Shown piece by piece: positions 6,128 through 30,998 of a stretch of 64,000 nucleotides of DNA. The translations under genes were made by a program, and so were the position numbers. Below the pieces are notes generated by a model that did no database searches, had not been told where the DNA came from, and saw only the letters and a program-made list of their open reading frames with translations. Each line of letters opens with the position of its first letter. The stretch's first letter is position 1. The stretch is from IMG/VR virus record IMGVR_UViG_3300046834_000025, positions 13,834 to 77,833 of that record; one strand, given 5' to 3'. The stretch is from a virus.

Positions 6128-6293
6128 CAGAGTGGCCAGAGGTTGCCACCTCTGGACCTCGTGGGCCTTTCTGGTACCCTGACCATAGGGTGCCCTCGTT
6201 CGGTCGACTCCGGCAAAACGACAGGTCGCGTGGAAGGAAGCTTTCGGTGCCCTCTGTCGCCCTGTCCCGCAACCCCGATTTTGATCATGAAAA
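6128..6293 (+). repeat. Conserved non-coding element copy 1 (second copy 17562-17706, short copy 97-128)
   Basis: shared blocks gaggttgccacctctggacctcg, accatagggtgccctcgttcgg, gacaggtcgcgtggaaggaa, ttgatcatg. Confidence 0.85.
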
Positions 6294-6313: not shown

Positions 6314-6342
6314 TTGCGTACTTTCCAAGTACATGGTATACT
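6314..6342 (+). promoter_or_regulatory. SigA-like early promoter P1
   Basis: TTGCGT-17bp-TATACT with TG extension, followed by GAGAACTCGA as in P2. Confidence 0.8.
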
Positions 6343-6456
6343 GAGAACTCGACACCACACCTGCCGCTGCTCAGCGTGCACTGATCTCCGCTGCCGTTTG
6401 AGTGATCTTCTGGCCGGAGGGTACAGAAAGCCCTCCGGCCAGCCGATAGGAGGATC

Positions 6457-14761: not shown

Positions 14762-15297
14762 ACTACGATGCAGCACACTATAGTCTTCGCAAGGCGCGAG
14801 GACTCGCTTCCGCATACGCGTGCGTGAACTGCGATGCGCAGGCACGCGACTGGTCATACCAGTACAACGCAGGGGCAGATGAGCTTACAGAAGGTCGGAG
14901 ACGATACTCAGCCAACCCGGATCACTACGTGCCGATGTGTCGGCGCTGCCACAAGGCTTTCGATGCAGAGCATGATCCCTCGATCACAGAAGCTCTAGCA
15001 GCCAGTGGGCGGAGAAACATCGTACACTGCCTAGAGGTGAAGGCTGAACGGTTAGCGACTGACCCTGAATACGCTGCACGAGTTGCCGACCATGCGCGTA
15101 CCATGTGGACACCAGAAGGCAGCCTGGCAGGTGGGCTGGCCGTCATGGAGAAGATCGGTCCAGAACAGTGGAGCGAGAACGCAAGTCGAGGAGGTACAAC
15201 CGTCAGCAAGCAAACACGAGAGTGCGAGTGCGGGTTAATCAGCAACCCCGGAGCAGTTGGAAGACATCTGAGTGCAACAGGGCACTCACTGAAGTGA
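14758..15297 (+). CDS. HNH-type homing endonuclease with C-terminal Cys/His finger
   Basis: CVNC...ARDWSYQY...YVPMCRRCHKAFD; atypical codon use. Confidence 0.7.
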   Translation: MNYDAAHYSLRKARGLASAYACVNCDAQARDWSYQYNAGADELTEGRRRYSANPDHYVPMCRRCHKAFDAEHDPSITEALAASGRRNIVHCLEVKAERLATDPEYAARVADHARTMWTPEGSLAGGLAVMEKIGPEQWSENASRGGTTVSKQTRECECGLISNPGAVGRHLSATGHSLK

Positions 15298-15316
15298 AGG
15301 AGACTGATCTATGGCT

Positions 15317-15544
15317 ATGAAGCTCAAGACGATCTGGACCATGCCTGCGATGAGCTTGCGAGAGCGGTTCGGTCGCACCTACGACCTGGTGCTGATCAAG
15401 CTGGCGCACCATCTGCCTGCCTCTCTCAAGTACCGCGTCTTCCTGGATGTCGGGGCAGCCAACATCCGGCCCGACGAGACCGTGCCCAGCGTGTACTATT
15501 TCGATATCCTGCAGCGCATGGAGGTTGGTCGCCGTGGCGAGTGA
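15317..15544 (+). CDS. hypothetical protein
   Basis: ATGA overlap with duplicated helicase end. Confidence 0.65.
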   Translation: MKLKTIWTMPAMSLRERFGRTYDLVLIKLAHHLPASLKYRVFLDVGAANIRPDETVPSVYYFDILQRMEVGRRGE

Positions 15545-15634
15545 GTGTCCATACTGCCAGTACCGCTTCGAGACGGAAGCCGAGCTCGCAGAACACGTTC
15601 CTTGTCCTGAAACGATCGGTGACCTGGAGGTTCC

Positions 15635-15787
15635 ATGCTAAGAGCCTGGCGAGGGCTAGTAGACGCCTTCAAAGGGGTGCTCAACGGCTTTGTCCGAGCT
15701 ATTTCCATCGAACCACCGTGGGCACTGCTCTACTGCGTGATGGCGCTCGCGTTCGTTTTCGTTGTGGTGTTTGGAGGCAAACGATGA
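15635..15787 (+). CDS. small membrane protein
   Basis: GGAGG RBS; hydrophobic WALLYCVMALAFVFVVVF. Confidence 0.55.
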   Translation: MLRAWRGLVDAFKGVLNGFVRAISIEPPWALLYCVMALAFVFVVVFGGKR

Positions 15788-16497
15788 CCAAGAAGTGTAA
15801 TGCGATCATGACCAGCGAAGGTGGTGTCTGCGAGCTTCACGGCGCTGCCTGGTCGAAGGACGGCTGTACGACAGCCGTTGTACTGGAAGATGTGCGCGAG
15901 CACCGGCAGTGGCAGTTCGACCACCACGGCTCGAACCGGAATGTGCCGGATGGCACTGGTCCGCAGGTCGAGTGGCTGATGCCAGTCCTCGGTGCAGACG
16001 GCGCAAAGCAGGCATACGTCGGCTCTGTCGGTGCAGCCACGATCGAAGCCCTGTTCCGCGAGGACTGGGACTGGCCGAAGGACGGCACCGACCAGGAGAA
16101 GGCCGATGCCTACGCGGCAATGACCTGGTTGGGTCTTGTGCGCGAGGAGACCGCAGAAGCGTTTGCCAAGGAAGACCAGGACGAGCTCTACGGTGAGCTC
16201 AAGCAGCTTGCCTCACTTGCGATCTCCTGGATGGAGAAAATCCGTGAGCGCAAGCAGTGGCAGTACGGCCAGCTTCATGACGACGGCACCGTCTACAGCC
16301 TGCCCTACTGGCACTCTCCCGACCAGGTGATCGCTGCACAGCATGGTCTGATGCCGGTCCCTGGCATGCAAGTCATGGTCGTTCGTCGTCGCCCTGGTCA
16401 GCCGTGGGAGCCGATGCCGGACACCTACTGGGGAGGAAAGCATGAGCCGCCTGATCTGCCCGGTCTGCACAGCACCACACGGCACGCCGCATCGTAA
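15784..16497 (+). CDS. MazG-like nucleotide pyrophosphohydrolase-domain protein
   Basis: TWLGLVREETAEAF...ELYGELKQLASLAISWME helical pattern. Confidence 0.55.
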   Translation: MTKKCNAIMTSEGGVCELHGAAWSKDGCTTAVVLEDVREHRQWQFDHHGSNRNVPDGTGPQVEWLMPVLGADGAKQAYVGSVGAATIEALFREDWDWPKDGTDQEKADAYAAMTWLGLVREETAEAFAKEDQDELYGELKQLASLAISWMEKIRERKQWQYGQLHDDGTVYSLPYWHSPDQVIAAQHGLMPVPGMQVMVVRRRPGQPWEPMPDTYWGGKHEPPDLPGLHSTTRHAAS

Positions 16498-16624
16498 GAC
16501 CTGCGCTGAAGAGGCACGCAGGATGGTCGATCACCTGACCACCGAACTCGAGAGGCTGCGAGCGCAAAACGAGCAGCTACACATCGAGATCCAGAACCCA
16601 GAGATGAGGATCGATTGGAACTGA
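16442..16624 (+). CDS. small zinc-ribbon/coiled-coil protein
   Basis: GGAGG RBS; CPVC...H...C. Confidence 0.55.
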   Translation: MSRLICPVCTAPHGTPHRKTCAEEARRMVDHLTTELERLRAQNEQLHIEIQNPEMRIDWN

Positions 16625-17172
16625 TCAAGCCGTGTCGTCGAGGTCTCCACGATCTCGCCGATACGGTCAACGTCTACGTGCAGCCAAGTACCGGCAAGCC
16701 GCAATGCAAGCGGTGCATGGCTGACCGGCGCAAGAGGAACAGGCAGCGCAAGGCAGATCAGTATGCAGCAGTTACCAAAGCCTGGAGAGAACAGAACAAA
16801 GAGAGGAATGCTGCAGTACGACGCGCCAACAAGGAGGGTGTAGCTAAGTGGAACAAGACGTATCGCCAGAACAACCCGGAGAAGTTCCAAGGGTACCAAC
16901 GAAAGAGACGTGCGCTGAAGGCTAGCCTGCCTTCGGAGCCGTACACCAGGCAGGACATCATCGATCGTGATGGAACGGACTGTGGTCTCTGTGGAGAGCC
17001 TGTCGATCTTGAGCTCAAGTACCCAGATCATCTGTCGCCGTCGATCGACCACGTCATCCCGATCACCAGGCAAGGACCAGATACCCTTGCGAACGTGCAA
17101 CTCGCGCACCTGATTTGCAACATACGCAAGCACAACCACCTGGAGGAGAAGGACCTTGAACGAGCGTCCTGA
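16615..17172 (+). CDS. HNH endonuclease
   Basis: CGLC...SIDHVIPITRQG...NVQLAHLICNIRK. Confidence 0.9.
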   Translation: MELIKPCRRGLHDLADTVNVYVQPSTGKPQCKRCMADRRKRNRQRKADQYAAVTKAWREQNKERNAAVRRANKEGVAKWNKTYRQNNPEKFQGYQRKRRALKASLPSEPYTRQDIIDRDGTDCGLCGEPVDLELKYPDHLSPSIDHVIPITRQGPDTLANVQLAHLICNIRKHNHLEEKDLERAS

Positions 17173-17554
17173 TTGGCATAGCTATTTCTTGATCATCGCT
17201 CAAGCCGTCGCGACCCGTGGCGAGTGCGTCAGGAGCAAGGTAGGTGCCGTGATCGTTCGCGATCAGCGCATCCTCGCGACAGGCTACAATGGCGTGGCCG
17301 CAGGAGAGCCGTCGTGCCTGGATGGCATCTGTCCGCGTGCTCAGAACCGAGTACCACACGGTACTCCTTATACTGGCGCTGGTGCCTGCATCGCCAAGCA
17401 CGCCGAGATGAACGCGATCGAGGACGCAGAGCGCAGAGAGATCGATATCGAAGGTGCCTGGATGTACCTCACGAAGGAGCCCTGTGAGCAGTGTGTCGGC
17501 CAGCTTGACGCCTACAGGCTCTCCGTCATGTGGCCGGACGACCCTACATCCTAG
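17156..17554 (+). CDS. dCMP (deoxycytidylate) deaminase
   Basis: VGAVIV, ATGYNG, HAEMNA, EPCEQC. Confidence 0.92.
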   Translation: MNERPDWHSYFLIIAQAVATRGECVRSKVGAVIVRDQRILATGYNGVAAGEPSCLDGICPRAQNRVPHGTPYTGAGACIAKHAEMNAIEDAERREIDIEGAWMYLTKEPCEQCVGQLDAYRLSVMWPDDPTS

Positions 17555-17561
17555 CTTGCTG

Positions 17562-17706
17562 GAGGTTGCCACCTCTGGACCTCGAGGCCCACTTGAGTAC
17601 CCTCACCATAGGGTGCCCTCGTTCGGGCCACTCTGGCGTTTTGACAGGTCGCGTGGAAGGAACTCCGGCAGGCCGTGCTCCCCCGTGCCCATGTTGATCA
17701 TGGAAA
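17562..17706 (+). repeat. Conserved non-coding element copy 2
   Basis: matches 6139-6293 in colinear blocks. Confidence 0.85.
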
Positions 17707-17833
17707 GGGGCCAAATGGGTGATCTTCCGCCGAAAGACGCGAGGATGCTCGTGCTCTGGCCGATGAGGTAAGTGCAAGCACACACCGAGGAAGGGAGGTC
17801 GCCAGGTCACTGACCTGGTAAAACACCTGAAAG

Positions 17834-17862
17834 TTGCATTTGAGCGAGATTCATGCTATGAT
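17834..17862 (+). promoter_or_regulatory. SigA-like early promoter P2
   Basis: TTGCAT-17bp-TATGAT with TG extension, then GAGAACTCGA; palindrome ccaggtca-c-tgacctgg just upstream. Confidence 0.8.
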
Positions 17863-17923
17863 GAGAACTCGAACAAGACGTGCCCGCCACCAGGGTCGGC
17901 ACACCGAGGAAGGGAAGCCCACC

Positions 17924-18964
17924 GTGGCCCACGAAATCACCGACACCGACACCGTCATCTCCGTCCGTGACGCAGGCTGGCACGGCCTGGCCAAGGTGCT
18001 CGACGACTACGTCACGCCGGAAGAGGCTCGCAAGGCTGCCTTCGACTGGGAGCCGATCACCACGCCTCTCTACCGTGGCGTTCCGGTCATTGGTGACGAC
18101 GGCTATGTCAGCCGGGGATACGAGCTCATCGAGGGCACTGTCGGCGTGGAGCGCAGCGACAACGGCGTCTTCTTCGGCGCTGTCAGCAAGGAACTCGGCG
18201 AGACGCTGGAGCACACCAACAACAAGACCCTGACCGAGGTGGCCGAAGCCGTCGAGGGCATCGCCGCTGGTGATGTCCGGGTCGAGACCGCTGGCAGCCT
18301 CAAGGGTGGCCGGAAGGTCTGGATGCTCCTCCGCCTCAACGAGCCGATTGCCATCAAGGGTGACCCGCACGGCGACACGATCCCCTACTTCGCGCTCCAG
18401 ACCTCCCACGACGGCACCGGCTCGTTCCGTGGGCAGGCTCTGTTCACCCGCGTGATCTGCGACAACACCGCTCAGATGGCCGACCTCGAGGCCGCGAAGC
18501 GCGGCACGGAGTTCACCTTCCGCCACACCTCCGGCATCAAGGACCGAATCGAAGAGGCGAAGGCTGCCGTCGCCATGTGGCGCAAGAGCGTGGAGGACTG
18601 GAACACGCTCATGGGCAACCTGATGGATCTCAAGATCACCGTGAAGCAGCAGGAACTCTTCGTCGACCAGTGGCAGCCGCTGATGCTGCCGGAGGGTCTG
18701 GCCGTCAGCCAGCGCGTGCAGAACAACATCGAGACTGCTCGCGGTGAGTTCTGGGGCATCATGAACGGCGTCACCACGGAGGGCATCGACCTCACGGCCT
18801 ACGGACTGGTGCAGGCCGCGATTGAACACCAGCAACATGTTCGGAGCGTCCGCGCTGACTCGGATCTCGCTCGTGCTGAAAGCCGCTTCAACCGTGCCTA
18901 CCTGCAGCGCGATAGCCTGACCACCCTCGCCGTGAAGCTCGCTCGTGAGGTTGCGGCAGCCTGA
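17924..18964 (+). CDS. DUF932-domain protein
   Basis: ETAGSLKGGRKVW, TSHDGTGS, RVICDNT, FRHT motifs. Confidence 0.9.
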   Translation: MAHEITDTDTVISVRDAGWHGLAKVLDDYVTPEEARKAAFDWEPITTPLYRGVPVIGDDGYVSRGYELIEGTVGVERSDNGVFFGAVSKELGETLEHTNNKTLTEVAEAVEGIAAGDVRVETAGSLKGGRKVWMLLRLNEPIAIKGDPHGDTIPYFALQTSHDGTGSFRGQALFTRVICDNTAQMADLEAAKRGTEFTFRHTSGIKDRIEEAKAAVAMWRKSVEDWNTLMGNLMDLKITVKQQELFVDQWQPLMLPEGLAVSQRVQNNIETARGEFWGIMNGVTTEGIDLTAYGLVQAAIEHQQHVRSVRADSDLARAESRFNRAYLQRDSLTTLAVKLAREVAAA

Positions 18965-19473
18965 TGAACTCCGGCGTGCCGACCCTGGCCAACCTGCTCA
19001 GCAAGTTCGAGCAGGTCGGCTCGGGGTGCTGGGAGTGGGTCAACCCGACTCACAAGCAGGGCTACGGTACGATCAGGTGGGACGGGCGAACGGTCTTCGC
19101 TCACCGGCTGATGGTGGCTGCAGTCTACGGCGTAACGCTCGAACAGATCCGAGAAGATGTAGTCCGGCACTCATGTGACAACACGTCGTGTGTCAACCCG
19201 CTTCATCTGCTCGTAGGAACACAACAGCAGAACTGTTTCGATCGGCTAATCCGTGGCCGACGCGTCGAACGACTAAACAACACAAGGCGTCTCTCCGTCG
19301 ACATCGTTACGGAGATGCGACGTCGAGCACGGCAAGGCGAACGAGGTGTTGCTTTGGCACACGAGTTCGGAATTTCGAAGAGCAGCACCTATCAAGCAAT
19401 CCGAGGCTACACATGGTCATGGATTGAAGAACCACCCGTCACAACACTGAGAGGAAACCGACATGAACAGTAA
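18964..19473 (+). CDS. HNH endonuclease with C-terminal HTH
   Basis: CWEW...GYG...AHR...VRHSCDNTSCVNPLHL.GTQQQN; LAHEFGIS. Confidence 0.9.
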   Translation: MNSGVPTLANLLSKFEQVGSGCWEWVNPTHKQGYGTIRWDGRTVFAHRLMVAAVYGVTLEQIREDVVRHSCDNTSCVNPLHLLVGTQQQNCFDRLIRGRRVERLNNTRRLSVDIVTEMRRRARQGERGVALAHEFGISKSSTYQAIRGYTWSWIEEPPVTTLRGNRHEQ

Positions 19474-19807
19474 GAACACCGGCGCAGTCAAGATGGTCAC
19501 GGACCTGTTGAAGCACGAGTGGGCATCAAGGGAGGTTGGTAAAAGCGTTCTCATCAATCCCGTCATCTTCGCAGCAAAGAACAATCTCTCAGCAGAGGTA
19601 GTCACGGGTGCCTTGCAGGATATCGCTCGCCCCGGTGCACCTCACACCTGGATCACCCGTGTTGCAAAGGGTGTCTATGAGATCGTAAGCGAGCCCATGA
19701 GTGCGCGTGAAGCGAGCGGTAATACCTCGCATCACTCGCGTATCAGTGCGCTCGAAGCTGAAGTCGCAGATCTCCGTGACATCCTTAAGCGTGCTGGACT
19801 CATCTGA
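19463..19807 (+). CDS. hypothetical protein
   Basis: GAGAGGAAACCGACATG start; stop codon lies in repeat copy 1. Confidence 0.7.
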   Translation: MNSKNTGAVKMVTDLLKHEWASREVGKSVLINPVIFAAKNNLSAEVVTGALQDIARPGAPHTWITRVAKGVYEIVSEPMSAREASGNTSHHSRISALEAEVADLRDILKRAGLI

Positions 19808-19869
19808 TCCTGCCGACCAGGATGGTGCCGGTCTTCGGAGAGACCGGCGCTGTCTGGGCCGACTGGCTC
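19803..19869 (+). repeat. Intergenic structured repeat copy 1 (67 bp)
   Basis: same as copies 2 and 3 except a longer central loop. Confidence 0.97.
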
Positions 19870-19895
19870 ACCACCGCCAAGAAGGGAAACCGACC

Positions 19896-20417
19896 ATGAG
19901 CAACGCCGACCGGACTCGCGAAGCGAAGCCAGCCTGCCCGTTCGACGGCGCGACCGTCCGTGACAGCAACGGACAGTGCCACTGCAGGAACGTCCTGTAC
20001 CGTGAGTGGCAGAAGGACCTCTCCATCAAGGACGACATGACCCTGATCTTCAACAAGGCTCTCCTGGACGGCGACTCGATCGAGACCGCTCTCGCTGCCG
20101 TGCGCGCCGAATTCCCTCACCTGGTTCGCACCCGGAAGATCAACGCGACGCCCACGCCCGCTGCCCCGCCTGCCGTGGTCGAGACGCCTGCCGTGGTCGA
20201 GGACGAGAAGAAGCCGACGACCGCCGAGATCATCAAGGACGAGGTGGCCGTGGAGAAGGCGGAGAAGCCTCGCTACGTCCTCGCGTTCGTGCCGTCCGGC
20301 CAGACCACGGAGTACGCTCGCAAGGACGCCGCCATCAAGGCTGGTGTGCGCTCTGGTGGCGAGTGGACCGTCAGCTACAAGGGCAAGAAGGTCGCTCAGT
20401 CCGATGAACTGCTCTGA
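19896..20417 (+). CDS. hypothetical protein (between repeats 1 and 2)
   Basis: GAAGGGAAACCGACCATG; strong codon bias. Confidence 0.75.
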   Translation: MSNADRTREAKPACPFDGATVRDSNGQCHCRNVLYREWQKDLSIKDDMTLIFNKALLDGDSIETALAAVRAEFPHLVRTRKINATPTPAAPPAVVETPAVVEDEKKPTTAEIIKDEVAVEKAEKPRYVLAFVPSGQTTEYARKDAAIKAGVRSGGEWTVSYKGKKVAQSDELL

Positions 20418-20474
20418 TCCTGCCGACCAGGATGGTGCCGGTCTCCGACCGGCGCTGTCTGGGCCGACTGGCTC
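20413..20474 (+). repeat. Intergenic structured repeat copy 2 (62 bp)
   Basis: tctgatcctgccgaccaggatggtgccggtctccgaccggcgctgtctgggccgactggctc. Confidence 0.97.
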
Positions 20475-20502
20475 GATTCGAACCGAGAGAAGGAAACTTA
20501 CT

Positions 20503-20814
20503 ATGAGCACCATCACCACCACCGTTCTCCCCGCCAAGCAGTCCCGTGGCACCGTTGCGATCCTCAACACCGTGCGCTGGATCGGCACCGGCTTCCACCT
20601 CCTGATCGCCGCGATCCTCCTGCTCATGTCCCTGGTCGCGATGTTCACGGCTGACAACGGCTTCCTGGTCTTCCTCGGTGGCCTCCTCGGTGTCGGCATG
20701 ACCCTCGTGTTCGGCGCGCTGTTCTACGCGACCGTGGGTTGGTTCGTCGACACGCTGAGCCAGCTCAACCAGATCGCTGCCAACACTGCTCCCACCAGCA
20801 TCACCGCTCTCTGA
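20503..20814 (+). CDS. two-helix membrane protein (between repeats 2 and 3)
   Basis: two long hydrophobic segments; GAAGGA RBS. Confidence 0.75.
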   Translation: MSTITTTVLPAKQSRGTVAILNTVRWIGTGFHLLIAAILLLMSLVAMFTADNGFLVFLGGLLGVGMTLVFGALFYATVGWFVDTLSQLNQIAANTAPTSITAL

Positions 20815-20871
20815 TCCTGCCGACCAGGATGGTGCCGGTCTCCGACCGGCGCTGTCTGGGCCGACTGGCTC
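20810..20871 (+). repeat. Intergenic structured repeat copy 3 (62 bp)
   Basis: identical to copy 2. Confidence 0.97.
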
Positions 20872-20905
20872 GTGATTGCACCACTCACCTCACGGAAGAG
20901 AGACC

Positions 20906-22228
20906 ATGACTAGGTTCAGAATCGCAACGATCGCCATCCTGGCGGTGGTGATCGCTTGCTTCGCATGGAACTTGACTGCTCCTGCGCAGGCAACCAGCAC
21001 GGACTGCGTGCCGCAGGCTGCCTACGACGAGACCGTCGTGGACAAGGCTGCCTGGGACGAGACCGTCACCGACAAGGCTGCCTGGGACGAGACCGTCATC
21101 GACACGGCTGCCATCGATCGGTGGTACTCCTGGACGGGTGGTCCCTCCGACTCGCACCCTGCTCCGCCTGCAGGCTCGTGGCAGGTGGACAACGGTAGCC
21201 ACGACGGCTTCGACCAGAGCCCTGGTTTGCTGCAGCGGGACAAGGGCAACAGTGGCAACAGCGACTGGTTCTACCACCTGGTCGTTGCGGAGGTGTCTCA
21301 CGTCGTCCACCACGCCGCTGAGACTCACGTCGTCCACCACGCCGCTGAGACTCACGTCGTCCACCACGATGCTGTGACGTGCCCGCCTCCGGCGACCACC
21401 ACGATCACCACACCTCCGGGTGACGACGAGGAGACGACCACGCCTCCGGTCACCACCACGCCGACCGGCCACAAGTACTACGTCTGCAAGTACGTTGGCA
21501 CGCCTGGTGAGGACGAGCGTCCTCAGCCGAGTGACCAGAACCCGATCTTCGTCGACGAGCACTCCATCGCCTCGTTCCCGAACATCGTCATCGGCGCGTT
21601 CTTCGCTGACGCACAGGGTCGCTCGAAGGTGATCGCTGGTCCGTACGACAAGAAGCTCGATGTCGAGCCTGGCATCGAGGCATGTGGCGGAACGACAACC
21701 ACCACGACCACACCGCCGACCACCACCACGCCGAACGGCTTCCCGGTTCCGGCTCTGTTCAACGCTGCGCCGACTCCGGCAACGTGTGTCTCTGCCGGAG
21801 TGTTCAACGATGGCGCTCTCGGTGGTGTCCTGATCGACACCTCTCCCTCGGGTCTGACCAAGGTGTACTCCTTCGCGGACGACGCCTTCCGGCTCGTGGT
21901 CAGCCGCGAGACTGCCGGAGAGGTGGGCCTGTGGCTGGTGCCGTTCGAAGAGGGCCTTACGTTCTCGGGTCTGTCCGATGCCTGGACCGACAACGGTGAC
22001 GGAACATTCTCTCGCACCATCATTCTCCCCGCTCAGTTGAGCGGTGAGGACTGCCCGACGACCACGACCACGCCGCCGACGACGACCACCACGGTCCCGC
22101 CGACGACGACCACGACCGTGCCGCCGACGACGGTGACCACGACCGTGCCACCGACGGAGAAGCCGAAGCCTGCTCCCAAGCCGGTCACGCCCAAGCCGTC
22201 TCGTTCCGTTCTGTCGCACACCCTCTGA
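20906..22228 (+). CDS. secreted Thr/Pro-rich surface protein, candidate sortase partner
   Basis: signal peptide ending AQA; AAWDETV and ETHVVHH repeats; poly-Thr/Pro linkers; ends VLSHTL. Confidence 0.8.
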   Translation: MTRFRIATIAILAVVIACFAWNLTAPAQATSTDCVPQAAYDETVVDKAAWDETVTDKAAWDETVIDTAAIDRWYSWTGGPSDSHPAPPAGSWQVDNGSHDGFDQSPGLLQRDKGNSGNSDWFYHLVVAEVSHVVHHAAETHVVHHAAETHVVHHDAVTCPPPATTTITTPPGDDEETTTPPVTTTPTGHKYYVCKYVGTPGEDERPQPSDQNPIFVDEHSIASFPNIVIGAFFADAQGRSKVIAGPYDKKLDVEPGIEACGGTTTTTTTPPTTTTPNGFPVPALFNAAPTPATCVSAGVFNDGALGGVLIDTSPSGLTKVYSFADDAFRLVVSRETAGEVGLWLVPFEEGLTFSGLSDAWTDNGDGTFSRTIILPAQLSGEDCPTTTTTPPTTTTTVPPTTTTTVPPTTVTTTVPPTEKPKPAPKPVTPKPSRSVLSHTL

Positions 22229-22253
22229 TCCACTAGCCCGAAGGGAGAGCACG

Positions 22254-22886
22254 ATGAAGACAACTGCAGCAGCGATCACCGTGCTCTCCCTTCTGGCCGG
22301 AGGAGCTACCCTCTTCAGTCTTGACCAGCAGGCACCGCCTGCGCGGCGCACTCTGCCCGTTTCTGCACCGCTCTCGGTACCAGCACCCGTCACCATCACC
22401 GTGCCGACCACGGCACACACGACCACGACCAGGGCCGTCTCTGTGCCGAAGGTGAAGGTTGGGCAGCGCATGGCTGTCCTCGACCTCCCTCATGCCGGAA
22501 AGATCACGATCAAACAGGGCACCAACAACCTGGACCGCGAGACCTCGATCCTCAACACTGGCGCAGCAGTTCACTACGTGGACAGCGCGAAGTGGTTCGG
22601 AGACGGCGTGTTCGCGATGTCCGGCCACCGAACGACCTACGGTGCCGTCTTCAACAAGCTAGACAAGATGAAGAAGGGAGACATCGCCACTGTCACGACC
22701 AAGGACGGCGTCTTCAAGTACCGCTACCTGGACACCCGAATCGTGACGCCGGACAAGATGTGGGTGCTCGATCCCACCGAGAAGAAGGAGTACCGACACC
22801 TCAAGGATGGTGGTCTCGTGATGACTGCCTGCCACCCGAAGCACTCAGCCCGTCAGAGGATCGTTGTCCTCTGGAAGGAGATCTGA
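22254..22886 (+). CDS. sortase (class E-like)
   Basis: N-terminal hydrophobic anchor; SGHRTTYGAVFNKLDKM, LVMTACHP...ARQRIVV (His/Cys/Arg triad). Confidence 0.92.
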   Translation: MKTTAAAITVLSLLAGGATLFSLDQQAPPARRTLPVSAPLSVPAPVTITVPTTAHTTTTRAVSVPKVKVGQRMAVLDLPHAGKITIKQGTNNLDRETSILNTGAAVHYVDSAKWFGDGVFAMSGHRTTYGAVFNKLDKMKKGDIATVTTKDGVFKYRYLDTRIVTPDKMWVLDPTEKKEYRHLKDGGLVMTACHPKHSARQRIVVLWKEI

Positions 22887-23029
22887 TGCACGTCAACGGC
22901 CAGGAGGCGACCCGCTGCGAGCGGTGCAGTCACCCGCAGGGTGCCTGGGCCACCTACATCCCCACGGACGAGTGGGAAGCACACGTTCAGTGGCACAAGG
23001 AAACTGACGCAAAGGAGAAAGAAGCATGA
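22886..23029 (+). CDS. small zinc-finger protein
   Basis: CERC...HVQWH. Confidence 0.5.
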   Translation: MHVNGQEATRCERCSHPQGAWATYIPTDEWEAHVQWHKETDAKEKEA

Positions 23030-23256
23030 GCGCGCCAGGAGTGCTCCGCACCAAGAAGAAGCGGTGCGTCTGGTGCGCCAATGAGAAGGCTCGCACGTCG
23101 AAGACGGCCTGGCCGATTGTCGACACGACCGGCGTGGTCATCAGGTGGATCACGCTTTGGGCCTGCCAGCCGTGCCTGTGGGTCAACATGGAGAAGCGAG
23201 AGTGGCTGACTGCGCGTGAGCTACGAATCGCCGAAAGAATGAGGGTACCAGCATGA
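23026..23256 (+). CDS. small zinc-binding protein
   Basis: CVWC...CQPC. Confidence 0.55.
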   Translation: MSAPGVLRTKKKRCVWCANEKARTSKTAWPIVDTTGVVIRWITLWACQPCLWVNMEKREWLTARELRIAERMRVPA

Positions 23257-23567
23257 GTGACAACGTGATTCGGATGGACCGGCTCTCGATCCCGCCGACT
23301 CCTGAGCTCGACAAGCGCAACAAGATCCTGCACAGTAACGCTCACCCGCAGGATACGCTCACGGACTTCTGGGACTGGATGGAGGGACAGGGCTGGCACG
23401 TGTGTGAACTGGTCGTGCGCAACCCCGAGGTCTCCGACACGCGAGAGTTCGTGCCGGTCAGGGAACGCGTCGAGAGCATGTTCGAGCGGTTCTTCGGCCT
23501 GGACGGCGCGAAGATGGAGCAGGAGAAGCGCGCGATCCTGGCGCACTTGAGGGAGCAGCAGGGATGA
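23253..23567 (+). CDS. hypothetical protein
   Basis: ATGA overlap. Confidence 0.65.
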   Translation: MSDNVIRMDRLSIPPTPELDKRNKILHSNAHPQDTLTDFWDWMEGQGWHVCELVVRNPEVSDTREFVPVRERVESMFERFFGLDGAKMEQEKRAILAHLREQQG

Positions 23568-23834
23568 GCCCACAGTGGAGACGGCGCATCATCGCTGTCG
23601 ACCTCGTGATCATCGTGTTCGGCCTGTCCTACATCGCGTACAGGCTGTTCTCGTGAAGCCGGTCAGGGCTGAGGCTGCAGTTCTCCACTGTCCCAACTGT
23701 GGTGCCAAGCCGAACCGTCCATGCACCAAGGCCGCTGAGCGCGGTCGGCGTCCGATTCCCTGGTTGCACCTAGGCAGAGAGCTTGCCGCTGACCGGCTGT
23801 TGGAGCCTGATGACCTCTGGAAGGAGCCAGAGCG

Positions 23835-24284
23835 GTGATCCCTGGTCTGGGTGAGCCAGAATGCGAGCTCACGTACAAGGAGATTGACGCGCGGTTCGTC
23901 AGCATCCCTGAGCTCGCTCAGCTAACCGGCTTCTCTGCCAGGCAGATTGACTACCTCATCCGGTCGGATCGGCTCTACCCAACGCACTACACGTGGAGCA
24001 ATCTGCACCTCAAGGCACCCGTGTGGGTTTGGTTGCCAGGCACCGAGATCAGCAGCGGGTACCGCCGCATCTGGGAGCGAGGCAGCGACCGGCTGAGGTA
24101 CGTGCTCCTGCTTTCCGCCTGGGTGAAGATGGGCATGAGCACTGCGTCAGCCGTTGCTCTGGCCAAGCACCATGTCTTTGGAACGGAACTGCCAGTATTC
24201 CTTCTCCCGCTGGCGGATGTGGAACTGAGAGAGGAAACCGATGAACGACGCAATGAAGCGAGTCAAGAAGGCTCTCAAGGGTGA
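23835..24284 (+). CDS. MerR-like HTH DNA-binding protein
   Basis: SIPELAQLTGFSARQIDY...SGYRRIW. Confidence 0.6.
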   Translation: MIPGLGEPECELTYKEIDARFVSIPELAQLTGFSARQIDYLIRSDRLYPTHYTWSNLHLKAPVWVWLPGTEISSGYRRIWERGSDRLRYVLLLSAWVKMGMSTASAVALAKHHVFGTELPVFLLPLADVELREETDERRNEASQEGSQG

Positions 24285-24516
24285 TCTGGCCGACTTCGAG
24301 GTTGGCACGATCATCACCTGGACACGTGTTGTGGAGAAAGAGCCGTTCCCCTACGCGGCGATCAGAACGCCGCGAGCCTGGCTCACGACGGCTCCCAACG
24401 ATCTCATCGTGAAGCGGGTCTACTCCTTCGACAATCTGCTCGAGGTGCTGTCCCGTGAAGGTATCGCTGACGTGCGGGTCATCGGTCGAGACGATGGCAC
24501 GAAGGTCGAGCCGTGA
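24241..24516 (+). CDS. hypothetical protein
   Basis: exact GAGAGGAAACCGATG. Confidence 0.7.
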   Translation: MNDAMKRVKKALKGDLADFEVGTIITWTRVVEKEPFPYAAIRTPRAWLTTAPNDLIVKRVYSFDNLLEVLSREGIADVRVIGRDDGTKVEP

Positions 24517-24866
24517 GTAGCCTCTACCAGACCGAGACCTGGACGGACAAGGACGGCAACGTCTTCCGGCTCAAGGACATGGACGCGCGCTACTGTGCCG
24601 GTCTGCTGATGTTCCTCGAGCGCAACGCAAGAGCGTTGATGTGGAACGAGTACCAGCACGCTGACGCTGATGTTGTGCTGCACGACGGTGGAGACATGGC
24701 GCACGCTGCCTTGGAGCGAATCGCTGATGAGCTCCTGGACGGATTCTTGGAGGGTGCGTGGGACGAGTGGCTGGCCGAGTTGCCGTTCGTCATCGCGCTC
24801 AAGAAGGCTCTCAAGAAGAAGCGCAAGAAGCTGAACAAGGCGTTCAAGAAGGAGCTAGTGCGATGA
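24513..24866 (+). CDS. hypothetical protein
   Basis: GTGA overlap; basic C-terminus. Confidence 0.7.
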   Translation: MSSLYQTETWTDKDGNVFRLKDMDARYCAGLLMFLERNARALMWNEYQHADADVVLHDGGDMAHAALERIADELLDGFLEGAWDEWLAELPFVIALKKALKKKRKKLNKAFKKELVR

Positions 24867-25138
24867 CAACTACGCACGTCGACTGGATGGAGAGTGGTCT
24901 GTGCCGCCAGGTCGATGTGTCAGATGCCATGTTCGTCTCTGGCAAAGACCAGGCGAAGGCAAAGGTGTTGTGTCGGACGTGTCCTGTCGCACTTCTCTGT
25001 CTGGCTGATGCCCTGGACAACAAGACTGAGTTCGGTGTCTGGGGAGGGTTGACGGAGCGCGAGCGTCGTCGGCTTCTCAAGCAGCATCCGAACGTCACGT
25101 CCTGGAGGCGAGTCTTGGAGAGGAAGTTCGGTGGGTAA
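24863..25138 (+). CDS. WhiB-family regulator, WhiB4/WblA-like
   Basis: 4 Cys, GVWGG, CLADALDNKTEFGVWGGLTERERRRLLKQHPNVTSW. Confidence 0.9.
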   Translation: MTTTHVDWMESGLCRQVDVSDAMFVSGKDQAKAKVLCRTCPVALLCLADALDNKTEFGVWGGLTERERRRLLKQHPNVTSWRRVLERKFGG

Positions 25139-25412
25139 GTACGGGTCTGCAACCTGTCAGACATGCCGCAAGCCCTGCGCGCTGCGCTGGAACGGCAGGC
25201 TGTACACGCACCGCGCACCGAACGGGCGCGTCTGTGACGGCGTCAACCAGATGAGCGGGTTGCCAACTCTCAACGGACACACGGCAACAGTACTTGCCAA
25301 TGGCTCCATCGACTGCAGTTGCGGAGAGGTCTCGCCAGTCTTCTCCGCCGCGAGGTTTCGCGAACGCTGGTGGGGCTGGCACGTAGGTGATACAATCACA
25401 AAAGACGGCTGA
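25131..25412 (+). CDS. zinc-binding hypothetical protein
   Basis: CQTC...H...C; CSCG. Confidence 0.55.
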   Translation: MGKYGSATCQTCRKPCALRWNGRLYTHRAPNGRVCDGVNQMSGLPTLNGHTATVLANGSIDCSCGEVSPVFSAARFRERWWGWHVGDTITKDG

Positions 25413-25537
25413 CGGCGGTTTTCTCGAACGACTCCGACCGGCGTCAGAAGCGCGAAGGGCTTTTCGCGCTGGCCCGGACCCTGCTGTCTTCCCTGGAGCA
25501 GGGTCCGGGTCCTCCCCCTTCCGAGAGAGGAAAACCG

Positions 25538-25675
25538 ATGGCAGGCAAACACGCAGCACTCGGCGTTCTCACACACGACCGCACTGAGCCTGGCAAGCAT
25601 GTCGACACGACCAAGCCAGTGGAAGAGGAACCCGCTTGGCTCGACCCGGACGACTGGGCCGACCTGGACGACTGA
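25538..25675 (+). CDS. 45-aa protein with acidic tail
   Basis: GAGAGGAAAACCGATG; ends WLDPDDWADLDD. Confidence 0.55.
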   Translation: MAGKHAALGVLTHDRTEPGKHVDTTKPVEEEPAWLDPDDWADLDD

Positions 25676-25715
25676 GCCTACCTGGTTCAGTTCCAACAAG
25701 AGAAAGAGGAAACCG

Positions 25716-26477
25716 ATGGATCACATCTCTGTCAAGGGAAGCGAGCTCCGTATCGACCCCGATGCGCAGCGTCTCTTCGAGCAGCACCGCGCCAACAAGA
25801 TCGCAGAGGAGTGGGACGAGCGTTCTGTCGGCGCGATCACCGTTTCCCTCCGGGACGATGGCGGCATGTACATCCTCGATGGGATGCACCGCGTTGCTGC
25901 CGGTCTCCTGGTCGACCCCGACATGATGTTCTTCTGCATCATCCACAAGAACATGTCGGCAGAGGACGAAGCGACCCTGTTCCTGCGCTCAAACAACGAG
26001 CGCAAGAGCGTCAACAGGTTCGACACCTACCGGATGTACCTCCGGGCGAACGACGAAGTCGCACTCCGCATTCAGGCGGAGGTGATGGCTGCCGGACTGT
26101 CGGTCGGACGCAGGGCATCTACCAACCAGGTATCTGCCGTCGTTACCCTCCGGCGCTGGGCAGAGAAGGACGTACCTCCGTACGGTCTGATCACCCGCGC
26201 ACTCAACATCAACGAGGTTGCATGGGGGCGCACCGCTGAGGCATGGGACAACACCGTCATCGCCGCAGTCTGCGAAGTCTTGCACAAGAACCCGCACATC
26301 CAGATCAACCGGCTGGTGCATACCCTTCAGAAGTTCGTCGTGGCTCAGTGGGCTGCAAAGGGTGTGGAGCGCATCGGCGGTAGCGGTGGTTCCGCGTCAC
26401 GTCCGAGCAGCACTGCAGCCTGCATCTGCGACGAGTACAACAAGAGGCTGAGCTTGGCCAAGCGCATCGGTCTCTGA
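25716..26477 (+). CDS. ParB/Srx-like domain protein (DUF6551-like)
   Basis: IDPDAQR...GAITVSLR...YILDGMHR...EATLF. Confidence 0.75.
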   Translation: MDHISVKGSELRIDPDAQRLFEQHRANKIAEEWDERSVGAITVSLRDDGGMYILDGMHRVAAGLLVDPDMMFFCIIHKNMSAEDEATLFLRSNNERKSVNRFDTYRMYLRANDEVALRIQAEVMAAGLSVGRRASTNQVSAVVTLRRWAEKDVPPYGLITRALNINEVAWGRTAEAWDNTVIAAVCEVLHKNPHIQINRLVHTLQKFVVAQWAAKGVERIGGSGGSASRPSSTAACICDEYNKRLSLAKRIGL

Positions 26478-26480
26478 CTC

Positions 26481-26786
26481 ATGAGGGAGACGGCTGTCGA
26501 GAAGCGACTCATCAAGAAGGTCAAGGAAGCTGGCGGGGCGTGCATGAAGATCATGCCCGTCGTCGCCGGTTACCCCGACCGGCTCGTGTTGCTTCCCGGT
26601 GGCCGTCTCTTCCTCGTGGAGACCAAAGCTCCGAAGGGTGCGCTCCGACCAGCGCAAGTTGTCTTCATCGCTCGCGCTGAGGCGATGGGCATCCCAGTCG
26701 CAGTCTTGTACACGAGCAACGAGGTTGACAACTGGGTGAACGAGGTTTCACGTTTGTCAGCGGACCCCCCGCTCGACCAGGTATGA
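26481..26786 (+). CDS. VRR-NUC domain nuclease
   Basis: RETAVEKRL...GYPDRLVLLPGG...VETKAPKG.LRPAQ. Confidence 0.9.
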   Translation: MRETAVEKRLIKKVKEAGGACMKIMPVVAGYPDRLVLLPGGRLFLVETKAPKGALRPAQVVFIARAEAMGIPVAVLYTSNEVDNWVNEVSRLSADPPLDQV

Positions 26787-26838
26787 TGATTCTTGTCAGC
26801 AAGCCTGACCCCCAAGATTCATCGTTGAGAGGAAACCG

Positions 26839-27225
26839 ATGATCATCACCATCGACACGAGCCAGCCTCTGTCTCAGATCGACTTGGACGCGCTCATGGC
26901 GCTCACGGGTGTCGTCGCCCCTTCGCCGAACGGCCAGGAACCGCCGTCTGCGCCGGTCTCCGTCGTGCCCACCAAGAAGGCTGCGCCTGCCAAGAAGGCC
27001 GCTGCACCGAAGGCTGAGCCGAAGCCGGAGACGCCCGCAGAACTCGCTGCGGACGAGGACGAGGCTGCCAAGCTGCAGGAGACCGCTCACGCCAAGGCGA
27101 GTGGCCTTCTCGCCGATGGTCAGCGTGACCGCGTGATCGCGGCTCTCAAGGAGATCGGCGCTGCACGTGTCGCCGAAGTCCCGGCTGACAAGCTGCAGGA
27201 GTTCATCGACGCTCTGGGTGAGTGA
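26839..27225 (+). CDS. hypothetical protein of the exonuclease/SSB module
   Basis: exact GAGAGGAAACCGATG; Ala/Lys/Pro linker. Confidence 0.75.
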   Translation: MIITIDTSQPLSQIDLDALMALTGVVAPSPNGQEPPSAPVSVVPTKKAAPAKKAAAPKAEPKPETPAELAADEDEAAKLQETAHAKASGLLADGQRDRVIAALKEIGAARVAEVPADKLQEFIDALGE

Positions 27226-29631: not shown

Positions 29632-29660
29632 TTGCGTTGTAGCATCAAACATGCTACAAT
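29632..29660 (+). promoter_or_regulatory. SigA-like promoter P3
   Basis: TTGCGT-17bp-TACAAT with TG extension. Confidence 0.75.
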
Positions 29661-30990: not shown

Positions 30991-30998
30991 CCCGAACT

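Follow-up and report, generated by a model that had tools for sequence, protein, structure and literature searches.

Results

Genes at the repeat locus

Three short, near-identical repeats (R1 to R3) are interspersed with small genes on the plus strand of a viral genome. The window analysed here is a stretch of 64,000 nucleotides, corresponding to bases 13834-77833 of the 77,833-bp IMG/VR record IMGVR_UViG_3300046834_000025, and positions are given in window numbering. Upstream of the array, a free-standing HNH homing-endonuclease gene (18964-19473, GC3 0.63) is followed by an open reading frame of 114 amino acids without a family match (P0001; 19463-19807, GC3 0.60), which ends inside R1. Gene A (19896-20417, 173 amino acids) belongs to a conserved family of small phage proteins whose members have a Cys-rich N-terminus and, at the C-terminus, a conserved SDDLL motif, and gene B (20503-20814, 103 amino acids) encodes a predicted small membrane protein. 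Gene C (20906-22228, 440 amino acids) has no family match and encodes a protein with a signal-peptide-like N-terminus and Thr/Pro-rich repeats. It is followed by a sortase-domain gene (22254-22886; Pfam PF04203, E = 9e-20). All these genes are on the plus strand, and P0001 and genes A, B and C are unrelated to one another.

Homologues of gene A were present at the same locus in two of the relatives described below (G001 and G003). Its closest homologue was P0007 (62% identity), and tblastn against 50,697 phage records gave no match. For gene B, three homologues were found in 5.8 billion proteins, the closest being P0021 (60% identity). Searches of IMG/VR yielded no relatives of P0001, gene B or the sortase. 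The sortase gene is located directly 3′ of gene C, whose product is predicted to be secreted and has no obvious C-terminal LPXTG-type sorting signal. At the start of the sortase gene, a hairpin was predicted (22236-22303, within 22229-22304; −42.7 kcal/mol, z = −5.3) in which the ribosome binding site (RBS) and start codon pair with codons 8-17. As a candidate element, it may control translation or stabilise the 5′ end of the mRNA.

The HNH gene and P0001 probably constitute a recently inserted homing-endonuclease unit, since their GC3 (0.60-0.63) is lower than that of the neighbouring phrog_1221, gene A and gene B (0.84-0.89). Both were missing from this locus in the relatives. The start of the HNH gene overlaps the stop codon of phrog_1221 (TGATG), and the end of P0001 provides the stop codon inside R1.

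The viral record is ∼94% complete, without terminal repeats, and has a GC content of 61%. Between ∼3.5 and 41 kb, the plus strand carries early and replication genes, encoding a helicase, an exonuclease, a DNA polymerase, a ParB-like protein, a Gp2.5-like annealing protein and an endonuclease/resolvase. The top matches among cultured phages were those of Microbacterium, Streptomyces, Gordonia and Arthrobacter, with protein identities of at most 46%, and neither megablast nor blastn against the 50,697 phage records gave a match to the region. The source is therefore an uncultured actinobacteriophage without a close sequenced relative. Following recombinase family searches of the record, no lysogeny or plasmid features were apparent.

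Anatomy and copy number of the repeats

R1 (19802-19870), R2 (20412-20475) and R3 (20809-20872) are direct copies of 62-67 bases, all located on the coding (plus) strand and all within 1.1 kb. R2 and R3 showed 100% identity over 64 nt, confirming the initial annotation, which had listed three copies, two of them identical. R1 departs from both at three places: its central loop carries a 5-nt insertion, its first base, ahead of TCTGA, is A and not C, and its last base is different as well. The variation had been placed in the central loop, and the indel is indeed the sole internal difference; the edge bases of R1 differ as well.

Each copy opens with the last codon and the TGA stop of the upstream reading frame (P0001 for R1, gene A for R2 and gene B for R3), and a purine-rich RBS and an ATG are found 26-34 nt past its end. 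The flanking genes being unrelated, the earlier description of each copy as holding the TGA of one gene and preceding the RBS of an unrelated one was found to be correct. The stretch from repeat to start codon has a different sequence at each of the three junctions. The similarity stops abruptly on either side of each repeat, where the flanks are unrelated, and orientation and register to the stop codon are the same in all copies. The centre of the repeat is a perfect 7-bp inverted repeat, the palindrome GCCGGTC/GACCGGC, with half-sites 3 bp apart in R2 and R3 and 8 bp apart in R1; conservation extends ∼25 nt to each side.

A 24-nt and a 28-nt half of the repeat each occurred three times exactly in the window, versus 0 expected from shuffles. 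In the whole 77,833-bp record, R1 to R3 were the sole copies detected, whether by BLAST or with a covariance model of 18 base pairs; elsewhere in the record and in three relatives, the covariance model gave nothing below E = 0.3. The stop codon of gene C lies in the 9-mer CTCTGATCC (22223-22231, plus strand), which corresponds to no more than the opening 9 nt of the repeat; the remainder is absent. Its recurrence at 22223, reported earlier, was confirmed; it is not unique, five copies being present on the plus strand of the record, including that at 22223 and two others outside the repeats and gene C. The copy at 22223 may be a remnant or a junction and is not a fourth copy of the repeat.

Searches outside the record gave no further members. 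The repeat had no match by megablast or blastn in the 50,697 phage records, and exact-pattern searches of IMG/VR returned no sequence matching three different parts of the repeat. An exact 21-mer gave 18 matches in metagenome and genome contigs, all attributable to chance and confined to the 21-mer in unrelated sequence, and no true copy of the repeat in 185,579 species genomes. BLAST and a pattern search allowing 3 mismatches, each on a sample of 401 Actinomycetes genomes, revealed no multi-copy family; matches were single and at control level. The sampled genomes contained no CRISPR-like array of the repeat either, and mimicry of a CRISPR repeat was not supported.

Predicted folds

Two folds of nearly equal energy were predicted for the plus strand, in agreement with the two alternatives proposed at the outset. 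In the first, a long stem, 14 bp in R2 and R3 and 16 bp in R1, contains four G-U pairs and is extended by 2 + 2 pairs across symmetric 1 × 1 internal loops, giving a length of approximately two helical turns. In the second, three small hairpins are formed (−32.3 kcal/mol), and two of the loops display the same CCGAC motif. In silico, the repeats fold with −34 to −40 kcal/mol (z = −2.5 to −2.9). The 5-nt indel of R1 keeps the stem and lengthens it by 2 pairs, which fits a hairpin and argues against both a coding extension and a dimer site of fixed spacing. A coding extension by read-through of the stop codon was ruled out, 5 nt not being a multiple of 3.

The G-U pairs had been taken to favour plus-strand RNA. 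This applies to the inner stem but not to the repeat as a whole: next to the 7-bp GC core, an outer 7-bp stem with two G-U pairs is found on the minus strand only and evens out the energies (plus versus minus, −32.3 vs. −30.3 and −34.2 vs. −34.0 kcal/mol). Three near-identical copies give no covariation in favour of any fold, and hence none of the folds is proven. An Rfam scan of positions 19000-23000, with E-values up to 10, produced no match falling on any repeat, leaving the suggested antitermination or self-cleavage function without support.

Promoters and transcription context

The promoter type of this phage consists of TTGCRT, a 17-nt spacer and TAnnnT, with CATGn before the TAnnnT, and occurs at 6314-6342, 17834-17862 and 29632-29660 only. 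The TTGCRT/TAnnnT family is specific to this phage group. The early promoter at 17834-17862, P2 (plus strand; TTGCAT, 17-nt spacer and TATGAT with TGC upstream), is the nearest recognisable one upstream of the array, which lies ∼2 kb downstream of it. After the array, no promoter-like site was found for 5.5 kb; the next plus-strand sites after 17834 are an extended −10 box at 25388 and the full promoter match at 29632. No sigma-70-like site was detected in 15000-27000. A promoter within the repeat was rejected, as it contains no sigma-70-like site and the phage promoter type lies elsewhere. The repeat hairpins are not followed by a T-run, and a terminator scan did not list them. An intrinsic (Rho-independent) terminator was likewise rejected, the GC-rich hairpin being present and the U-tract absent.

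Because there is no plus-strand promoter between 17834 and 25388, ∼12 downstream genes would depend on transcription through the repeats. These comprise genes A, B and C, the sortase gene and ∼8 further small genes, none with a promoter of its own. Judging from the sequence, the array would thus be read through, and a strong-terminator role for the repeats appears unlikely, since the downstream genes must be transcribed through them.

Other conserved sequences accompany the promoters and start codons. The promoters at 6314 and 17834 are both followed by a conserved GAGAACTCGA, and a 101-nt direct repeat (84% identity; 6139-6239 and 17562-17662) lies upstream of them. A start-associated sequence, GAGAGGAAACCGATG, was found at 19449, 24229, 26827, 29389, 31041 and 36817, together with variants. 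With 7-9 plus-strand copies versus ∼0.1-0.3 expected, it is among the most over-represented words of the genome. Similar start-associated sequences are known from Cluster K mycobacteriophages, and a form of GAGAGGAAACCGATG precedes genes in G003.

Comparison with related phages

Three distant relatives, G001 (L004), G002 (L005) and G003 (L032), were used for comparison. A backbone of helicase, phrog_1221, w26481, exonuclease and annealing protein is common to them and to the present phage, with 52-66% protein identity, lower in a few smaller genes. The stretch from phrog_1221 to w26481 measures 7.5 kb here versus 2.0, 2.7 and ∼2.7 kb in the relatives (that of G003 measured across the record ends), and its gene content is largely different, gene A alone recurring, in G001 and G003. 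The array sits in a hypervariable (hyperplastic) locus rich in accessory genes and ORFans. It had been proposed to check whether the intervening genes vary in related phages; this was done, and the content differed in all three. Such variation does not show repeat-mediated swapping, because the relatives are distant (∼55-65% protein identity) and none carries the repeat, as searched with the covariance model.

Among the relatives, L004 and G003 have a long GC-rich hairpin without a U-tract directly after the stop codon of their phrog_1221 homologue, and G003 has another after that of its gene A homologue. These junction hairpins are unrelated in sequence to R1-R3, and each is different. In the present genome, unrelated GC-rich hairpins of 13-17 bp, also without a U-tract, were found after the stop at 30998 and ahead of the RBS at 6403 and 25473. 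Given such hairpins of other sequence at equivalent places, neither the fold nor its position is out of the ordinary in this phage group; what is unusual is only the sequence common to three junctions.

Discussion

Proposed role of the repeats

The best explanation, held with about as much confidence as doubt, is that R1-R3 are sense-strand intercistronic hairpins serving as a barrier, processing site or leaky attenuator, one hairpin having spread to three junctions through homologous recombination or gene conversion; the phage is termed lytic in this explanation. In the operon transcribed from P2, each repeat would be transcribed as the sense strand and would fold just past the upstream stop codon, either into a rod of ∼20 bp or into three small hairpins. 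On the mRNA, this hairpin may act as a 3′-end barrier, a processing site or a leaky attenuator, dividing the polycistronic message. The unique GC-rich hairpins at equivalent junctions in the relatives presumably serve the same purpose. The near-identity of the copies would then be a matter of history, not of functional requirement: one hairpin would have been copied by homologous recombination or gene conversion while accessory genes entered the hypervariable locus, and the resulting 62-bp identities may now be usable as crossover points for the exonuclease and the Gp2.5-like annealing system of the phage. Of the functions proposed in the initial annotation, a sense-strand RNA element agrees with where the repeats lie and how they are oriented, with the restriction of the indel to the loop and with the absence of both promoter and U-tract; its integron part was not upheld, as set out below.

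GC-rich stems without a U-tract are common after stop codons in high-GC Gram-positive bacteria and their phages. In Actinobacteria, I-shaped hairpins are found at mRNA 3′ ends, and whether they serve termination or 3′-end protection is debated. R1-R3 resemble these hairpins in having a GC-rich stem directly after a stop codon and no U-tract. Such hairpins are normally unique in sequence, whereas the three described here have one sequence.

Alternative explanations

Alternatively, a sequence-specific factor may recognise the repeats, and selection for this recognition would have kept the copies perfectly identical. On that account, the repeats would be a cis-acting RNA signal, such as an RNase III-type site, a site for a phage or host RNA-binding protein or a put/nut-like antitermination element, and this is the main rival, although we consider it unlikely. 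It is favoured by the long stem (14-16 bp plus 2 + 2 bp, with 1 × 1 internal loops and approximately two helical turns), by the occurrence of the same CCGAC motif in two loops, by the perfect conservation outside the loop and by the position of the elements inside a polycistronic unit that needs read-through. In phage T7, the early RNase III sites (R0.3-R1.3) leave, after cleavage, a 3′ hairpin that stabilises the upstream message. The repeats are similar to these sites as hairpins of about two turns with internal loops, placed between the cistrons of an early polycistronic mRNA, but have no sequence similarity to them, differ in number and host, and are known as predicted folds. A T7-like double-stranded RNA of ∼20 bp with an internal loop is matched by the long-stem fold, but the three-hairpin fold is equally stable. 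Further points against a recognised RNA signal are the lack of an Rfam match on the repeats even up to E = 10, the failure of the covariance model to find diverged copies in this genome or in the three relatives, and the presence of three copies without covariation. In addition, unrelated hairpin sequences at the same junctions in the relatives imply that no recognition sequence is conserved in the group. If neither history with a function nor selection is invoked, the copies would be neutral leftovers: a hairpin-bearing intergenic segment duplicated along with gene insertions and having no more function than any spacer. Only three copies exist, within 1.1 kb and with none elsewhere in the record or the searched collections, and their identity may mean that they are young. 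This reading is nevertheless improbable, as hairpins right after stop codons are consistent in this phage group, so that the fold itself is likely used, and as, in a phage with an annealing-protein system, direct repeats of 62 bp are unstable if there is no selection for the genes between them.

Explanations at the level of DNA fared less well. A double-stranded binding site, either an operator or a centromere-like site for the ParB-like protein (25599-26477), could use the GCCGGTC/GACCGGC palindrome, and the perfect 7-bp inverted repeat at the centre, the clustering of three sites and the location of the ParB-like gene 5 kb downstream are in its favour. It is nonetheless quite improbable: the half-site spacing (3 bp in R2 and R3 versus 8 bp in R1) is unlike that of a fixed dimer site and like a hairpin loop, conservation runs ∼25 nt beyond the palindrome on each side, and the phage lacks lysogeny or plasmid features. 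The sharp boundaries and the unrelated flanks on both sides would also suit a small non-autonomous mobile element, MITE- or REP-like, inserted three times and mobilised in trans. Such an origin is very improbable, given that the ends show no terminal inverted repeats at the DNA level (∼6 of 15 end positions match by hand comparison) and no target-site duplications, that neither a Y1 nor a RAYT transposase is present in the record, and that all copies have one orientation and one register to the stop codon. Moreover, the element was not multi-copy in the samples of 401 Actinomycetes genomes and had no true copy in the 185,579 species genomes.

Hardly credible, finally, is an integron-like array of attC sites, with cassettes exchanged by a site-specific recombinase acting on the folded single-stranded sites. 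The arrangement does recall one, single promoterless genes each being followed 3′ by one structured imperfect palindrome in a single orientation, and the gene content of the locus varies among relatives. The defining tests nevertheless failed. No tyrosine recombinase (PF00589) was found in the 77.8-kb record, whereas 14 of 14 control genomes matched, and serine recombinase (PF00239) and Y1 transposase (PF01797) were absent from the record as well, with controls again matching. The remark in the initial annotation that no recombinase was visible thus extends to the whole record, for these three families, and the record is 94% complete. Read from its sequence, the repeat contains no GTT, and the conserved attC core sites GTTRRRY/RYYYAAC are accordingly missing; without an integrase, no attI or Pc is identifiable. 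Sites of the attC type typically have structure and not sequence in common, whereas R1-R3 are near-identical in sequence.

Possible recombination between copies and the PeSL analogy

Recombination genes are located 6-9 kb downstream of the array and encode an exonuclease (phrog_69), a Gp2.5-like annealing protein (phrog_112) and an endonuclease/resolvase (phrog_93). An identity of 62 bp is long enough as a substrate for recombination by an exonuclease and an annealing protein, so the copies can in principle mediate deletion or exchange of gene A or gene B. Homologous recombination of this kind between the copies is plausible. That the repeats are promoterless cassette-boundary modules which actively drive gain, loss and exchange of single accessory genes through the exonuclease and annealing system, perhaps together with the candidate Chi-like word CCGACCAGG described below, seems rather unlikely, slightly more so than the sequence-specific RNA signal.

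Promoter-early stem-loop cassettes (PeSLs) have been described in T4-type phages (Arbiol et al. 2010, PMC2839356; Comeau et al. 2014, PMC4122927). They start at the upstream stop codon, contain stem-loops with G-T pairs, occur in hyperplastic regions and mediate indels and the formation of mini-circles (PMC2839356; PMC4122927). PeSLs are the closest described analogue, but an early promoter is part of their definition and R1-R3 have none; by this comparison, R1-R3 would be a functional analogue or variant and not members. The two kinds of module have in common a length of ∼60-75 bp, their repetition between genes, a start at the upstream stop codon, a stable stem-loop with G-T/G-U pairs (here in silico) and a place ahead of the next Shine-Dalgarno sequence. 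In both cases the surroundings are a hypervariable region with small accessory genes, and no dedicated recombinase is needed. In contrast to R1-R3, which are without a promoter, PeSLs carry a strong sigma-70 early promoter, and they number ∼50 per genome with similarity at the motif level only, compared with three near-identical copies here. The host in the present case is an actinobacterium, and terminator activity and mini-circles belong to PeSLs, whereas R1-R3 have been read as sequence alone. In L004, the promoter type described above forms an intergenic repeat family of four copies (9913, 11843, 12416 and 18318), placed directly after stop codons; this family is closer to true PeSLs than R1-R3 are.

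If the repeats serve as crossover points, PeSL-style shuffling of accessory genes would also take place in high-GC actinobacteriophages, with no promoter needed in the module, and this would help to account for the mosaic genomes in the very large actinophage collections. Should they be RNA hairpins only, they would be a matter of routine annotation, illustrating the way in which early operons are divided in this phage group and offering a defined element for 3′-end formation without a U-tract in Actinobacteria.

A polar word in the repeat

The 9-mer CCGACCAGG occurs once per repeat and is present in 22 plus-strand versus 3 minus-strand copies in the record. With ∼2 copies expected, it is roughly 10-fold over-represented. 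Copies in the window were located at 179, 354, 3647, 4528, 9060, 9253, 16088, 16319, 19813, 20423, 20820, 29231, 34269, 35851, 40866, 43283, 49678, 51718 and 52329. The three relatives lack this skew. For CCGACCA, the 7-mer core of CCGACCAGG, the corresponding counts were 53 vs. 12, and the word or its core was the most strand-skewed one at each length from k = 6 to 9. The skew was found in the plus-transcribed arm (27 vs. 8) and in the minus-transcribed arms (26 vs. 4) alike, and is thus not a codon effect. CCGACCAGG is a candidate polar signal at the DNA level, Chi-like or similar.
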